From a virus, in IMG/VR virus record IMGVR_UViG_3300014135_000001, positions 1 to 41,684 of that record: DNA of 41,684 bases. One strand, 5' to 3'. Shown here one piece after another: positions 1 to 4,240 of this stretch (position 1 is its first letter; each line of letters begins with the position of its first letter). Both the position numbers and the translations under genes were made by a program. The notes under the pieces are model-generated. The model worked only from the letters and a program-made list of their open reading frames with translations. It had not been told where the DNA came from and did no database searches.

Positions 1-78
1 CTCCTTTCTACACCTTTATTATACCCTATATAGGGTATAAAGTCAAGCGCTTATTTATACTTTTACAAACAAAAAAAA
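1..78. repeat. Terminal overlap copy 1, identical to 41607..41684
   Basis: Direct comparison: ctcctttctacacctttattataccctatatagggtataaagtcaagcgcttatttatacttttacaaacaaaaaaaa occurs at both window ends. Confidence 0.95.
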
Positions 79-121
79 AGAGCCTACTAACCTAGAAAAT
101 ATCTAGGTTAGTAGGCTCTTT
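69..121 (-). terminator. Rho-independent terminator ending the lysis operon
   Basis: 19-bp stem (77..95 pairs with 103..121, aaagagcctactaacctag / ctaggttagtaggctcttt) with a 7-nt loop. On the minus strand it is followed by a run of 9 T (complement of the A run 71..79). Confidence 0.85.
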
Positions 122-199
122 TAAGCTTTTGTCATTCTTTCGATAATCTTTTGAAATCAATCCATGAGTCCACCTGCTCATGATCAGGAGATAATTGGA

Positions 200-685
200 T
201 CACCTCTCTATCGATGAATCACTACTCCGATTATCGCTCCCGCTCCCACCACCTGGGATATGTTGCGTTGCATTCGTAGTCGCTTGATTGTGCGATTGTC
301 CCGCTCTATTTTGTTCGTCAACACGTCTAAAGATTTCTGCATTTCGCTTAAGGTAGCTTCTTGCTTCACTGAGTCCGCTTTGGCTTTGGCTAATTCGCTC
401 TCCAATTTGTTGATTGTATTGTGAGCTTCTGTCAATTCTTGCCCCTGCTTCACGACTAAGGTCTGTGCTTCTGTCAATGGAATGTTGGATGCTTCTATTG
501 AGTTCAAGGCTTTCTCGTTGTTGCTCTTGAGCTCGTTCCACTGCGTTAACGGCACGGTGATAGTCGGCTCCACTTGGCTGGTAGAGGATATATCCTGCGC
601 AAAGCAAGGCGAGCAACACAACACCACCGATAAGAATATAGCGGTTACGAGTGCGATCAAATAGACTTTTGATTTTTTCATACAT
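200..685 (-). CDS. Spanin-like membrane protein, frame A. N-terminal TM helix plus an R/Q/E/S-rich amphipathic region, giving an Rz / i-spanin-like topology.
   Basis: 161-aa ORF. Its ATG overlaps the amidase stop (TAATG) and lies 5 nt after a GGGGGGA SD. TM segment YILIGGVVLLALLCAGYILY. It sits directly after holin and endolysin. It is fully overlapped by ORF 208..681 in another frame. Confidence 0.5.
   Translation of the reverse strand: MYEKIKSLFDRTRNRYILIGGVVLLALLCAGYILYQPSGADYHRAVNAVERAQEQQRESLELNRSIQHSIDRSTDLSREAGARIDRSSQYNQQIGERISQSQSGLSEARSYLKRNAEIFRRVDEQNRAGQSHNQATTNATQHIPGGGSGSDNRSSDSSIER
208..681 (-). CDS. Spanin-like envelope protein, frame B. N-terminal signal/anchor, K/E-rich coiled coil and a hydrophobic C-terminal tail, giving a u-spanin-like topology.
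   Basis: 157-aa ORF whose ATG is 4 nt downstream of the frame A start and shares the same SD. N-terminus MKKSKVYLIALVTAIFLSVVLCCSPCFA-QD. Heptad-like LESELAKAKADSVKQEATLSEMQKSLDVLTNKIERDNRTIKRL. C-terminal VVGAGAIIGVVI. Its amino-acid composition looks typical for this genome. Confidence 0.55.
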   Translation of the reverse strand: MKKSKVYLIALVTAIFLSVVLCCSPCFAQDISSTSQVEPTITVPLTQWNELKSNNEKALNSIEASNIPLTEAQTLVVKQGQELTEAHNTINKLESELAKAKADSVKQEATLSEMQKSLDVLTNKIERDNRTIKRLRMQRNISQVVGAGAIIGVVIHR

Positions 686-1203
686 TATTGTCCCCCCGCA
701 TAATCAGTAATGCCTCGTGCAATCGCACGAACAATAGTATCTAAATCGTTCTTAAGCATAGCGTGGTCTTCTTCATTATCAATGAAGGCCATTTCAACTA
801 ATACTGCAGTTGCATCCGTACCATTTAATACCCAAAGGTCGTCGCGTTTTTTAACTCCGCGGTCTACGGTATTAATGCTTCGGATGATTTGGCTCTGAAT
901 ATCGTTCGCTAAGCGTTGCCCGTTAAAGGACTTATACAAAGTTTCTGTGCCACGAGCTTGCGTATTAAATGCATTGCAATGGAGTGATACAAATATATCC
1001 GCACCCCAATCATCAGATTCAGAACATACAAGGCCTAAATCATCACTTTGCAGAGTTCTAACTTCGCACCCTGCAGTCTGTAGATATCGTGCTAACATCT
1101 TGCCTGCATCACGAGCTACGTCGCATTCACGAGTACCGTGCACAGGGTTGACTGCCCCAGAATCTAAATCAATATCATGTCCGGGATTAATAAATACTTT
1201 CAT
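685..1203 (-). CDS. Endolysin, N-acetylmuramoyl-L-alanine amidase (Amidase_3 / CwlD-like fold), with no cell-wall-binding domain
   Basis: 172 aa. MKVFINPGHD...FVSLHCNAF...TETLY...VLVEMAFIDNEED matches the zinc-amidase type 3 pattern. Its start overlaps the holin stop. Confidence 0.85.
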   Translation of the reverse strand: MKVFINPGHDIDLDSGAVNPVHGTRECDVARDAGKMLARYLQTAGCEVRTLQSDDLGLVCSESDDWGADIFVSLHCNAFNTQARGTETLYKSFNGQRLANDIQSQIIRSINTVDRGVKKRDDLWVLNGTDATAVLVEMAFIDNEEDHAMLKNDLDTIVRAIARGITDYAGGQ

Positions 1204-1532
1204 CGTTTATCCTCCTTTTCTAACTGATCTGGAATGCCGTTGCCGTCTCTATCTATCCAAAGTGCCAAAAACCCTACGAGAGCCGTTAGCACGCTTGGGA
1301 TAAAGATGTGGTCGATTATATTTATCCCAACAGAAATGAGTTTCCCCATCTCATCAGAAACATAACCTTTGGCAAATGCCATACAGTATTCGATTACCAC
1401 CAACAAAATAGGTACTAGCATTGTTAGTACTAGTGCCCTTGTCGCCAATACTCCTGTAGGATGTATATTAGCTATTCGGATTGATTGATATGATTTTTTA
1501 ACTGTACTGATGAGATTTGGTGGTATGTTCAT
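1200..1532 (-). CDS. Holin (2-3 TM helices, charged C-terminus)
   Basis: Start taken at ATG 1532, preceded by AAGGAGGA. Hydrophobic segments ALVLTMLVPILLVVIEYCMAF and IFIPSVLTALVGFLALWI. Tail DRDGNGIPDQLEKEDKR. Lies immediately upstream of the endolysin. Confidence 0.75.
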   Translation of the reverse strand: MNIPPNLISTVKKSYQSIRIANIHPTGVLATRALVLTMLVPILLVVIEYCMAFAKGYVSDEMGKLISVGINIIDHIFIPSVLTALVGFLALWIDRDGNGIPDQLEKEDKR

Positions 1533-1836
1533 GTAGTTCCTCCTTAATATCATCAACTCTTGCTTCAATGCCATCAACTCGTGATGTCAATTTCACATGT
1601 TCCGTATATGCTTTAGTTCGCTGTTCGCGTGACAATTTGATTTCATCCTTTAAATCCTTTAGCGTATCAGTGAGTACGCCCATTTTTTCGTGAAACATCA
1701 AATTATCCTGCATTCTCTGTAAGTCCAACTTTTCGAGCAACGGAATAACTAGCACTTTATAGCCTAGACCAGCCACAATGCTAACTATTGTGATTGTGGT
1801 CAAGATGTCATTTAATTCAAATTGCCATGTCCACAT
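1498..1836 (-). CDS. Membrane-anchored coiled-coil protein, possible lysis accessory (XhlA-like coiled coil but with an N-terminal TM)
   Basis: 112 aa. SD AAAGGAG. TM ILTTITIVSIVAGLGYKVLVIPLL, then coiled coil LKDLKDEIKLSREQRTKAYTEHVKLTSRVDGIEARVDDIKEEL. Its 3' end overlaps the holin start by 35 nt. Confidence 0.7.
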   Translation of the reverse strand: MWTWQFELNDILTTITIVSIVAGLGYKVLVIPLLEKLDLQRMQDNLMFHEKMGVLTDTLKDLKDEIKLSREQRTKAYTEHVKLTSRVDGIEARVDDIKEELHEHTTKSHQYS

Positions 1837-1874: not shown

Positions 1875-2885
1875 TTATAGATGGTCAGCGATTCGGACCC
1901 CTGTGTTGATGTAGCGATGGTTAGTCGCATCCCATTCAATGATATTCATATCAAAGGCCAGCGTTTCGGACCCCTGTGTTGATGTAGCGATGGTTAGTCG
2001 CATGTTATTATTGAATCCTTCAAATGTTACATTTTCAGGCGTTTCAATATAATAAGGGCCGTAGCTGTTCCAGTTATCGCCTAAGTTGAGTACTGTCGGA
2101 CGATTAGCATACATATACATAGTAGAAATTTTCCAACGCTTAGGGTTTACGTTGAAATTACCATTCACTGTATTGTTAGTAATGTTCATTTTCAACACAT
2201 CGCCATAGAGTTTGTACACAATGCCATTTTCGGTATATTCGGCGTCGGCGTGTTCGTTGGATACACCTTTAATCGTATAGTCCGCCACTTTCGCACCTGT
2301 GAAATTGTGGTAAGTGAGTTTGATGTCATCTTCACCTAATGGCGGAATATTCACGTTACAAGCCCCATTACTGTCTAGCGTGAAAGGTGTATCATTGCCG
2401 ACTACCTTAACGCTGTAATGTGGTTCCCCTGTTACGGATACTACTTGTTGCCCTTGAATGACGCTAGGAATGGTTAAAGGCTTAAAGTCAGTCCGAGGGA
2501 ACGGCTTACCCATATTACCGATTAAAGCAGTAAGTACATCGTCAACGCTTGCACTTTCGCACCATACGTTACCATTTAGCAATAGCTGATGAGCATTATC
2601 TGCCGTAGCACTTGCGCCATCATTGCCCTTATCACCCTTAGGGCCTTTCAATGCCTCTAACTGTTCGGCGGTGAAATCTGCATAGGTGAATGAGTCGCCT
2701 TTTGAACCAGGTTCACCTTGAGGACCTTTTAAGCTATCAAGCCATTCCTGTTCAGTACCCTTAAACCCGTGAGCAGCTGCAATTTCATAAGCACTTTTCC
2801 CATTATCGCCTACCATGGTTGCTTTTACTTCCGCCTCTACTTTAATCGGACCTTCAATTCTTACTGGTAACGCTTTGTTTTGCAT
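1875..2885 (-). CDS. Tail fibre protein with a short collagen-like region
   Basis: 336 aa. SD GAGGAGGA. KSAYEIAAAHGFKGTEQEWLDSLKGPQGEPGSKGD...LKGPKGDKGNDG is the typical phage-fibre N-terminal motif with G-X-Y repeats. Confidence 0.8.
   Translation of the reverse strand: MQNKALPVRIEGPIKVEAEVKATMVGDNGKSAYEIAAAHGFKGTEQEWLDSLKGPQGEPGSKGDSFTYADFTAEQLEALKGPKGDKGNDGASATADNAHQLLLNGNVWCESASVDDVLTALIGNMGKPFPRTDFKPLTIPSVIQGQQVVSVTGEPHYSVKVVGNDTPFTLDSNGACNVNIPPLGEDDIKLTYHNFTGAKVADYTIKGVSNEHADAEYTENGIVYKLYGDVLKMNITNNTVNGNFNVNPKRWKISTMYMYANRPTVLNLGDNWNSYGPYYIETPENVTFEGFNNNMRLTIATSTQGSETLAFDMNIIEWDATNHRYINTGVRIADHL
1886..1930. repeat. 45-bp direct repeat, copy 1, inside the 3' end of the fibre gene
   Basis: cagcgAttcggacccctgtgttgatgtagcgatggttagtcgcat. 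Identical to 1959..2003 except for one base. Confidence 0.95.
1959..2003. repeat. 45-bp direct repeat, copy 2, 73 nt from copy 1
   Basis: cagcgTttcggacccctgtgttgatgtagcgatggttagtcgcat. The 73-nt offset is not a multiple of 3. Confidence 0.95.
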
Positions 2886-2899
2886 AATACATTCCTCCT

Positions 2900-3226
2900 C
2901 TAATCATGCATGGCCACATCCTGAATTATGTTGACTACCCCCATGCCCAGTTTATAATATCGGCTAGGCTCCGATTCCTTATATGCAAAAGCATCATACA
3001 CATGCTCACCAAAGGACTTAATTTCTAGGGTATCCTTTCCGGAAATATTGAATGTCGCAATCTTCCCAGATACTACCCCTTGCACTTTAATAACAAGCGG
3101 ACCACTTGCTCGCTTTCGTATGGCGAATACTGACTTAAACCCTGTCAAATCCACATTGTCATCTTGGACTGCGTAAACTATCCCGAAATCCTCGCCAATA
3201 TTGAGGTCTATATCTTTTACATTCAT
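2900..3226 (-). CDS. Hypothetical tail/fibre-associated protein
   Basis: 108-aa ORF with an SD (GGGGAGATGA), packed between fibre genes. Confidence 0.7.
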   Translation of the reverse strand: MNVKDIDLNIGEDFGIVYAVQDDNVDLTGFKSVFAIRKRASGPLVIKVQGVVSGKIATFNISGKDTLEIKSFGEHVYDAFAYKESEPSRYYKLGMGVVNIIQDVAMHD

Positions 3227-3241
3227 TACTTATCATCTCCC

Positions 3242-4240
3242 CTAATTGAATGGAATCATACCTTGTTTATCGTACCCGGTCACATCGACTACCAAATACT
3301 GAGATGTGGTTTTACCCGAGCAACCTACAGGATACGTGGTGACAGTATTCCAATCAATGAACTGATACGATTTCAGCGACACAGTACTCTCGTCGTGAAA
3401 TCTGAACGTTTGCCACACTAGCCCCGTGTGTGACTTTTTATCTCCATTATTAATATTAGGCCCCCAAACGGATGCATCGATTACGGACATGGGTATAATT
3501 GCAACCTTGACGCCATATGACTTTGGGTCACGGGCCATGTCTGTAAAAGTATCTGGAACGTAGTTTGATAACTGGTTATACCAATCGTGCGCGTAATGAT
3601 CGATTATGCGCAGGTACCTGATGCGGCTATCATATATCACATCATTCTGCAGATTGTAATCTGCTGCCCAGGATGCTTTATAGTACTTGTGACGGCCAAG
3701 CACTTGCAATGCCGTATTAGGCTTACTACTCCCTACCTTGTCAACAAATCGAATACGAGGTGTATCTGCATTAGCCACAACGTCCTCGAAGTATCCAAAG
3801 CAATAGAATTTAATACCAGCCTTCACTTCATCAACCATTGCTTGCGTTACCTTTTCGCCTGGTTTAATTACATCCACTACCAGCACCATTAACTGCTCAC
3901 GACGTTTATGAACCCACTGAGCCGCGAATTCATATCCTTGCGGAACTGATACTGCGATAAGAGGTGCATCGCCATGATATATGCGATTAGTAATATAAAA
4001 GACCTGGATTACATTAGCCTCCCCCGCAATATATCCGTATTGGTATTTACTTGTAGGCACCAGCATAGGTGCGTAAGCTACAGGTTTGAGCGGGATTTGA
4101 ACCGTTGGCGTTATCCCCCTCATCGCCCCAGTGTAAAGAACTGCATCTTTTTGTTTAGGGAAACTAAGATATACTAGATTGTCATAGGTATCGTTTATAA
4201 TTGTGACACCTTCTTTATTCTGGATGTTAATAAATTCCAT
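3242..4240 (-). CDS. Hypothetical distal-tail / receptor-binding accessory protein
   Basis: Start taken at ATG 4240 (MEFINIQNKEG...) behind GAAGGGTGG. The longer track start at 4312 would lie deep inside the upstream gene. Position is downstream of the J-like gene. Confidence 0.7.
   Translation of the reverse strand: MEFINIQNKEGVTIINDTYDNLVYLSFPKQKDAVLYTGAMRGITPTVQIPLKPVAYAPMLVPTSKYQYGYIAGEANVIQVFYITNRIYHGDAPLIAVSVPQGYEFAAQWVHKRREQLMVLVVDVIKPGEKVTQAMVDEVKAGIKFYCFGYFEDVVANADTPRIRFVDKVGSSKPNTALQVLGRHKYYKASWAADYNLQNDVIYDSRIRYLRIIDHYAHDWYNQLSNYVPDTFTDMARDPKSYGVKVAIIPMSVIDASVWGPNINNGDKKSHTGLVWQTFRFHDESTVSLKSYQFIDWNTVTTYPVGCSGKTTSQYLVVDVTGYDKQGMIPFN

Follow-up and report, generated by a model that had tools for sequence, protein, structure and literature searches.

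A dual-coded gene pair at the end of phage lysis cassettes: a candidate lipoprotein-independent spanin equivalent

Here we describe two overlapping genes at the end of the lysis operon of a Veillonella phage, IMG/VR record IMGVR_UViG_3300014135_000001, of which the 41,684 nucleotides from position 1 to 41,684 (hereafter the window) were analysed. The locus is open in two minus-strand frames: open reading frame (ORF) A occupies 200..685 (161 aa; phrog_18860 match, E = 1.7e-46) and ORF B occupies 208..681 (157 aa) in the +1 frame of A, coordinates that confirm those given in a preliminary description of this DNA. The two start codons form an out-of-frame ATGtATG (679..685, minus; A's ATG at 683-685, B's at 679-681) behind a single Shine-Dalgarno (SD) sequence, GGGGGGA (691..697, minus), which precedes A's ATG by 5 nt and B's by 9 nt and lies within the end of the endolysin gene; base 685 is common to A's ATG and the endolysin stop TAA (685-687). 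This start arrangement, too, is as first reported. An intrinsic terminator with a 20-bp stem and a T-run (76..122, minus) closes the operon, and a near-consensus promoter-like TTGACT-17-TATAAT (46..18) follows it. The order of terminator (122..76) and then promoter after A/B places the pair in the last gene slot of the operon, in agreement with the spanin position earlier assigned to it. Codon usage is abnormal in both frames. The composition of the window (43% GC) and of the A/B overlap (46% GC) does not bear out the earlier description of AT-rich DNA, and a search of Rfam returned no RNA family in the overlap.

A stop codon in frame A requires a B codon ending in T before a codon starting with AA, AG or GA. 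Rich in K, E, N and D, B has 43 of these stop-prone contexts, none with T, while in the comparison ORFs of the window (at least 120 aa) T precedes AA, AG or GA in 1193 of 3128 cases (38%). Elsewhere in the window, again among ORFs with 120 aa or more, the longest open run of this alternative frame is 75 codons in a real gene, and 85 codons in a single plus-strand ORF whose DNA overlaps a gene on the minus strand. When the B protein was held fixed and its codons were resampled from phage usage, frame A was open in none of 100,000 replicates, which carried a mean of 14.2 stops; shuffling of B's own codons only left frame A open with P = 0.002. The double open frame is real and far beyond chance, as the preliminary description had suspected.

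An alternative is that frame A (or B) is open by chance and has persisted through shared ancestry. Long alternative ORFs do arise by chance, and gene callers disagree at this locus: database searches returned 2684 relatives of A in one search and 3286 in another, and 2507 relatives of B (the top 120 all 157 aa long), the named sources in the large protein database being Veillonella and uncultured Caudoviricetes. By the totals of 2684 and 2507, gene callers pick either frame about half of the time. Comparison of the loci at the DNA level bears directly on this alternative.

The close set comprised 92 loci, of which IMG/VR supplied 80 and Veillonella genomes 12; their 477-nt core aligned without gaps and yielded 85 distinct sequences that are 70-99.8% identical in nucleotides. 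All loci but one (91 of 92) have an intact B, and in these 91 A is open as well, ending at ~133 aa in six of them. The upstream contexts are of at least three unrelated kinds and the adjoining spacer is itself variable, yet A's ATG persists in 91 of the 92 loci; ATGtATG is likewise present in 91, the remaining locus having ATGCATG, and an SD-like AGGAGG, GGGGG or AAGGAG stands at equal distance in all upstream contexts. Nucleotide diversity is 0.287 at A1/B3, 0.133 at A2/B1 and 0.126 at A3/B2, so that third-position wobble is clear in B, and conservation is stronger in frame B than in frame A (B dNN/dSN 0.25; confidence interval (CI) 0.20-0.31). Avoidance of stops in frame A was counted in the 85 sequences using only codons with a synonymous T-ending alternative. 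A stop-creating T occurs in 7 of 2134 danger contexts, compared with 1501 of 6135 (24.5%) safe contexts, and six of the seven exceptional T's lie at one codon, where they yield the 133-aa form of A. Single alignment columns swap base with context, as at codon 28, which has G in 32/32 danger cases and T in 39/39 safe ones.

Neighbouring genes of the same loci served as controls. The synonymous rate of B (0.52) is 2-3 times lower than that of the adjacent lysis genes (endolysin 1.03, holin-like gene 1.28, XhlA-like gene 1.48), and its nonsynonymous position 1/position 2 ratio is inverted (0.80, against 2.17, 1.70 and 1.81, respectively), position 1 of B being position 2 of A. The lowered synonymous rate and the inverted ratio each imply an effective omega of A of roughly 0.4. 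The direct estimate for A, a dNN/dNS of 0.80 (CI 0.61-1.06), is marginal alone and convincing only beside the control genes, and over the A tail it rises to 1.54 (alignment columns 400-474; window ~212-285).

To ask how deep the arrangement extends we turned to the B family, for which a search of 1.84 billion cluster representatives returned 58 representatives of ~140-177 aa, with identity down to 23%. The corresponding DNA set comprised 12 lineage clusters, prophages of Anaerosinus (Selenomonadales), three very distant metagenomic loci and a Megasphaera lineage; B of the lineage clusters is ~35-45% identical to that of the window, except in L112 and L181 (71-75%). The pooled sample of 18 lineage representatives, in which B identity falls to ~25%, combined the window with eleven of the twelve clusters and with six distant loci, and the branches of P0264, P0270 and P0289, which have no relatives in IMG/VR, fall outside this DNA-level sample. 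In every lineage an ORF of 118-167 codons extends over most of B in the frame that is -1 to it. The third frame is stop-rich, its longest ORFs overlapping B by 70-170 nt and the six most distant loci carrying 14-19 stops per gene in it. Stop-creating T's are absent from all 446 danger contexts in the 18 representatives, against 266 of 995 (27%) elsewhere. A-like and B proteins average 37% and 43% identity between lineages, and the A-like proteins share the motifs ERAQEQQRxSLxLN, DRSxxLN, ERIDES and RNxxLF. Identity in frame A (29%) exceeds the ~16% expected from B conservation alone and lies above all 200 simulations in 50 of 60 lineage pairs, but third-frame identity is also raised (27%) when all three positions are constrained; this test is thus not specific to A, and the case rests on stop avoidance and on the comparisons with control genes.

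These data refute a chance open frame, which we regard as next to impossible: none of the 100,000 resamplings was open, no stop-creating T appears among lineages whose synonymous divergence is saturated, bases switch with context, the third frame is full of stops and B's wobble is clear. The check that the preliminary description had proposed, on homologous loci, came out in its favour, with both frames open, synonymous change suppressed and both frames under purifying selection in the 18 representatives. This comparative evidence shows that purifying selection maintains A as well as B, and, as far as comparative data can establish it, dual coding of the locus is very nearly certain.

The unequal constraint on the two frames raises a further alternative, in which only the product of B matters and A is translatable for the sake of tuning B initiation or coupling to the endolysin, its protein being functionless. 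B is clearly more constrained, the direct dNN/dNS of A is not significant alone, and A's start overlaps the endolysin stop, as in a coupling device. A few codons suffice for coupling, however, yet 118-167 are open in every lineage; A's transmembrane (TM) helix and motifs are conserved between lineages in which B is ~40% identical; A-frame identity exceeds its null in most lineage pairs; and the low synonymous rate and inverted position ratio run along the gene. We therefore consider a functionless A improbable.

The layout of the pair varies within limits. ATGnATG with its +4 offset occurs in 10 of the 12 distant lineages and in L213 and L214, and the start variants (+7, +16 with a second GGAGG, and ATGTG) retain the same A/B frame relation. 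In the Anaerosinus lineage each start has its own GGAGG; in the Megasphaera lineage (L216 1567-2052, L217 2001-2525) the starts themselves overlap as ATGTG, combining B's ATG with A's GTG. The two ORFs were first described as sharing both ends, which holds for the window's clade. In most lineages and in six close relatives A's stop precedes that of B by 22-103 nt and comes immediately before the B anchor, and full co-extension is thus a peculiarity of that clade. As to which frame is ancestral, the indications are mixed: A has much Arg, Ser and Gln and little Lys, as is typical of an overprinted frame; A's GC content by codon position is nearer than B's to that of ordinary genes of the phage; and A and B are distributed identically in every lineage sampled. 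Two further observations concern the structure of the pair in single lineages. L114 and L120 share a 42-nt in-frame insertion (alignment A5, columns 126-139) that adds 14 residues to both A and B, leaves both frames open and resembles a duplication of two heptads. L112 carries a second A/B pair, of the L114 type, at ~2534-3650 (minus), convergent to the first and with its own endolysin, which resembles the weak Amidase_2-type enzyme of L114; two prophage ends or remnants seem to abut here.

Databases also contain chimeric A/B proteins (P0242, P0244, P0260 and P0263), which join the N-terminus of A to the body of B or the N-terminus of B to the tail of A, and one locus, L208, displays an A/B fusion and contains N's. 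Such chimeras could be taken to support programmed ribosomal frameshifting that joins the frames, for example A's TM segment with B's helix and anchor. Against this, we found no conserved slippery site, and relatives do not preserve the A-run that follows the start in the window; the two frames, each with its own start, stay open and under constraint over nearly their whole length; and the chimeras are rare cluster representatives that fit indels or assembly errors, as do the N's in L208. With both frames open, any indel or assembly error gives a full-length chimeric ORF. Programmed frameshifting was accordingly rejected as very improbable.

The two products belong to one architectural class. 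A is predicted to be an N-in, type II membrane protein with a basic N-terminus, a TM segment and a long helix. Hydropathy places the TM helix at aa 16-35 (YILIGGVVLLALLCAGYILY; 581..640, minus), and the AlphaFold2 (AF2) model has a TM helix at residues 11-34 followed by one helix at 40-137, with a predicted local distance difference test (pLDDT) score of ~90 over residues 60-125. The long helix (275..568, minus) carries the conserved motifs ERAQEQQRESLELN, DRSTxLN, ERIDES and RNxxLF. The C-terminal tail (aa 134-161; 203..286, minus) is clade-specific, unconstrained and predicted to be disordered, its last ~28 residues having pLDDT below 50 and being absent from the six close loci and from most lineages. 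The Rz-like i-spanin topology first proposed for A agrees with this model: an N-terminal transmembrane domain, N-in/C-out orientation and a helical periplasmic domain are predicted for A-like proteins of all lineages but L214. In that lineage the A-like N-terminus (L214 ~1926-1990; MNAKNCCLFLIVIFVLSVASCGG) resembles a lipoprotein signal with a VASC lipobox and not a plain TM anchor.

B begins with a predicted signal peptide (aa 1-28; 598..681, minus) cleaved by signal peptidase I (SPase I) after CFA, and the DNA that encodes A's TM helix (581..640) also encodes the hydrophobic core of this signal. In the AF2 model a signal-peptide helix (4-22) is followed by a disordered linker (23-44) and a helix from 45 to 156, with pLDDT 85-96. 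A basic juxtamembrane motif, KRLRMQRN (aa 133-140; 262..285, minus), in which Q138 is invariant in the family alignment, precedes a C-terminal hydrophobic anchor (aa 141-155, ISQVVGAGAIIGVVI, then HR; 217..261, minus), identified by hydropathy and continuous with the long AF2 helix to residue 156. Hydropathy is thus in line with the hydrophobic segments described earlier for both proteins. Throughout the B family we find the signal peptide, a TIxVPxxQWNxLK-type motif, the long helix and a basic RxxRQRN(x)W motif, and in all members a hydrophobic C-terminal segment that ends in K or R, which is short (15-19 residues).

The preliminary description had likened B to a unimolecular spanin (u-spanin), a comparison that the data do not support. 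The C-terminal transmembrane domain of such a protein has its counterpart in B aa 141-155. The three N-terminal cysteines noted earlier are present in the window, but relatives have G or S in their place or lack them, and the conserved site is of the SPase I type, xFA|[SQA][DG]; B was rejected as a lipoprotein on these grounds, there being no conserved lipobox cysteine, and it lacks the outer-membrane (OM) lipoprotein signal that o-spanins and u-spanins carry. B is all-helical. Nor is B a single product, a selected A-like ORF accompanying it in 18/18 lineage representatives. Cysteine is also absent from A after the TM segment and from mature B.

Similarity searches place the pair apart from characterized proteins. 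The best match to a known spanin family was phrog_1152, 'Rz-like spanin', at E = 0.51. Pfam, PHROGs (for B), NCBIfam, PADLOC, PDB sequences and Foldseek against BFVD gave coiled-coil noise below cut-offs only, a single long helix being an uninformative query for fold search. Megablast and tblastn with both frames, and tblastn with the distant relative P0280, found no match in 50,697 phage records, which leaves no isolated, annotated phage for comparison.

The lysis cassette ends, in nearly all lineages, with the endolysin gene, the pair immediately 3' of it and then a terminator, and hairpins analogous to the window's terminator stand 3' of the pair in other lineages. In the window the cassette opens with an XhlA-like protein with a TM segment and a coiled coil (1498..1836, minus; phrog_8369, E = 2.7e-12), which is conserved in related loci. 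It is followed by a holin-like membrane protein (phrog_27828; 1200..1577, minus, with a likely ATG start at 1532) that is also found upstream of the endolysin in related loci, and by an Amidase_3 endolysin (685..1203, minus; Pfam E = 1.4e-35; phrog_435). The XhlA-like and holin-like ORFs themselves overlap out of frame (1498..1577, minus) by 35-80 nt, depending on whether the latter starts at TTG 1577 or ATG 1532. No other spanin candidate was found in the window's lysis cassette. Across lineages, the endolysin ahead of the pair may be of the Amidase_3, Amidase_2, Peptidase_M15_3 or GH25 type or of a fifth type, and holin types vary too. The constancy of the pair beside these changing partners marks it as a module whose recombination is independent of the peptidoglycan hydrolase. 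The hosts that have names belong without exception to the Negativicutes (Veillonella, Megasphaera paucivorans and Anaerosinus/Massilibacillus massiliensis). The pair is an ancient, mobile module of the lysis cassettes of Negativicutes phages.

Two small proteins lie next to the pair in other lineages. A conserved 32-aa single-TM ORF (ME[EK]LKAFI...GALHHY[LF]GL) lies immediately upstream of the pair in L214 (1802-1918) and L215 (1812-1925), with an Amidase_3-type endolysin just upstream of it in L214, and may encode a further small lysis protein. In the Megasphaera lineage a 120-aa protein with a C-terminal TM segment lies between the GH25 endolysin and the pair. Outside the cassette, the 3' end of a tail-fibre-like gene (1875..2885, minus) contains a 55-nt direct repeat (1876-2003; 91% identical) whose start-to-start spacing of 73 nt is not a multiple of 3, so that the unit is read in two frames within one ORF (MRLTIATSTQGSE and ATNHRYINTGVRI); recombinational loss of one unit would alter the C-terminus of the protein.

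What might two such proteins do? We propose that one stretch at the end of the lysis operon yields two proteins from the same strand in two frames, both of which would be translated by way of the shared ribosome-binding site and the out-of-frame starts 4 nt apart. A would be a type II inner-membrane protein extending a helix of ~100 residues into the periplasm from its N-terminal TM segment. B would be exported by its cleavable signal peptide and held by the C-terminal anchor behind the basic RQRN motif, its helix of ~95 residues reaching into the periplasm with polarity opposite to that of A. Together they may act at the final step of lysis, disrupting the OM after peptidoglycan degradation, with the shared start setting their co-expression and ratio. 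We lean, if only slightly, towards this reading of the pair as a dual-coded, lipoprotein-independent spanin equivalent.

The host envelope offers a context for such a system. Two-component and unimolecular spanins are reported in a survey to need an OM lipoprotein signal (PMC6139136), and in Veillonella parvula no OM lipoproteins or Lol homologues have been identified (PMC10665443); phages of such hosts would thus need another solution at the OM. We found no OM-breaching mechanism described in the literature for phages of these hosts. The position of the pair, its independence of endolysin type, its host range and the topology of its products point to an OM (spanin-equivalent) role, the probability of which we put at even or a shade above; translational coupling to the endolysin and the terminator right after the pair lend support to a role in lysis. 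More tentatively, and with doubt slightly outweighing belief, A/B may represent a new, lipoprotein-independent class of machinery for OM disruption during lysis, particular to phages of diderm Firmicutes and made of two periplasmic helices with opposite anchoring. A and B would then necessarily share their DNA and be initiated together at one ribosome-binding site, which would hard-wire both the synthesis and the ratio of the two proteins.

Several points weigh against a spanin-equivalent pair. The predicted anchor of A and that of B are both in the inner membrane, and we identified no OM anchor or OM-binding element in either protein, which means that the model lacks the bridge between inner and outer membrane by which spanins are defined; speculative candidates for OM attachment are the conserved motif at the N-terminus of mature B and its basic-plus-hydrophobic C-terminus. 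Homology to a known spanin was not detectable for either protein. In the Megasphaera lineage the pair does not directly adjoin the endolysin. The named hosts cover three genera only, most family members coming from unassigned metagenome contigs, and the direct selection estimate for A is, as noted, marginal.

A different envelope-related role in lysis is a serious rival, although a less probable one. Both proteins would be made, with a function such as antiholin-like timing of the holin, positioning or activation of the endolysin, release of the OmpM-peptidoglycan tether, or superinfection exclusion. The predicted inner-membrane anchoring of both proteins, with no anchor in the OM, fits such a role, as does the lack of homology to spanins, and the cassette already holds a TM-plus-coiled-coil protein of XhlA-like type. 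That the place of the pair at the cassette end is unchanged whichever of five unrelated endolysin types precedes it, and with more than one type of holin, speaks against a regulator specific to one partner; in addition, all named hosts are diderm Firmicutes and the cassette is without another candidate for the OM step.

Whichever role applies, the locus matters in three respects. The pair is a concrete and widespread candidate for the undescribed mechanism by which phages of Negativicutes breach the OM, and V. parvula has been described as genetically tractable (PMC10665443). Same-strand dual coding over ~120-157 codons is unusual for a double-stranded DNA phage, and makes the pair a natural system for the study of membrane-protein co-evolution on one sequence. 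Finally, essentially every annotation lacks either A or B, and chimeric 'proteins' that result from indels pollute the databases.

Among known systems, the phiKT protein gp28 offers a functional parallel, in that a protein other than a spanin serves the OM step and B, too, has a basic segment beside a hydrophobic one; gp28 is reported to be a single cationic antimicrobial-peptide-like protein (bioRxiv 10.1101/515445), whereas A and B are two anchored helical proteins of ~150 aa. The T1 gp11 u-spanin resembles B in its N-terminal export signal, C-terminal anchor, absence of periplasmic cysteine and place behind the endolysin. B differs in having no lipobox, and hence no lipid anchor in the OM, and in always being paired with an overlapping second protein; it is also all-helical, while the survey likens u-spanins to class II fusion proteins (PMC6139136).

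With regard to gene organization, both ORFs are open, both are under detectable purifying selection, and each has a conserved start and ribosome-binding site, as in same-strand dual coding. Overprinted pairs such as phiX174 D/E likewise lie on the same strand with unequal constraint, suppressed synonymous change and atypical codon usage or composition (PMC8227390). The A/B overlap differs in running almost from start to end and in being retained to ~25% protein identity, and in that its products share one architecture, a membrane anchor with a long helix. The holin gene of lambda provides a precedent for the dual start. There, a single ribosome-binding site serves two same-frame starts separated by a few nucleotides, from which S105 and S107, proteins with a difference of two residues, are made in a set ratio. 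A and B resemble this case in their close starts and single ribosome-binding site, but their starts are out of frame and their sequences unrelated.

The comparison is closest with lambda Rz/Rz1. As there, the pair takes the last lysis slot, the second product is encoded in the +1 frame of the first, and A has the i-spanin design of an N-terminal TM segment with a helical periplasmic domain. The differences lie in the extent of the overlap (~120-157 codons with starts 4 nt apart, where Rz1 is a short gene inside Rz) and in B, a signal-peptide protein with a C-terminal anchor and not an OM lipoprotein. Periplasmic cysteines that form covalent homodimers, described as ubiquitous in two-component spanins (PMC6139136), are absent from A/B, which also shows no sequence similarity to known spanins; lacking both a lipoprotein signal and spanin homology, the pair was not filed under the o-spanin/two-component family or the u-spanin family. 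In the preliminary description the pair was said not to fit the three spanin arrangements embedded, overlapped and separated. It is indeed not among the embedded, overlapped, separated and unimolecular forms as the survey presents them (PMC6139136), but the claim is overstated, as B is formally embedded in the +1 frame of A in the window and the two genes overlap mutually in other lineages. We regard A/B as an extreme embedded/overlapped case, and by analogy it would work most like the embedded Rz/Rz1 pair.

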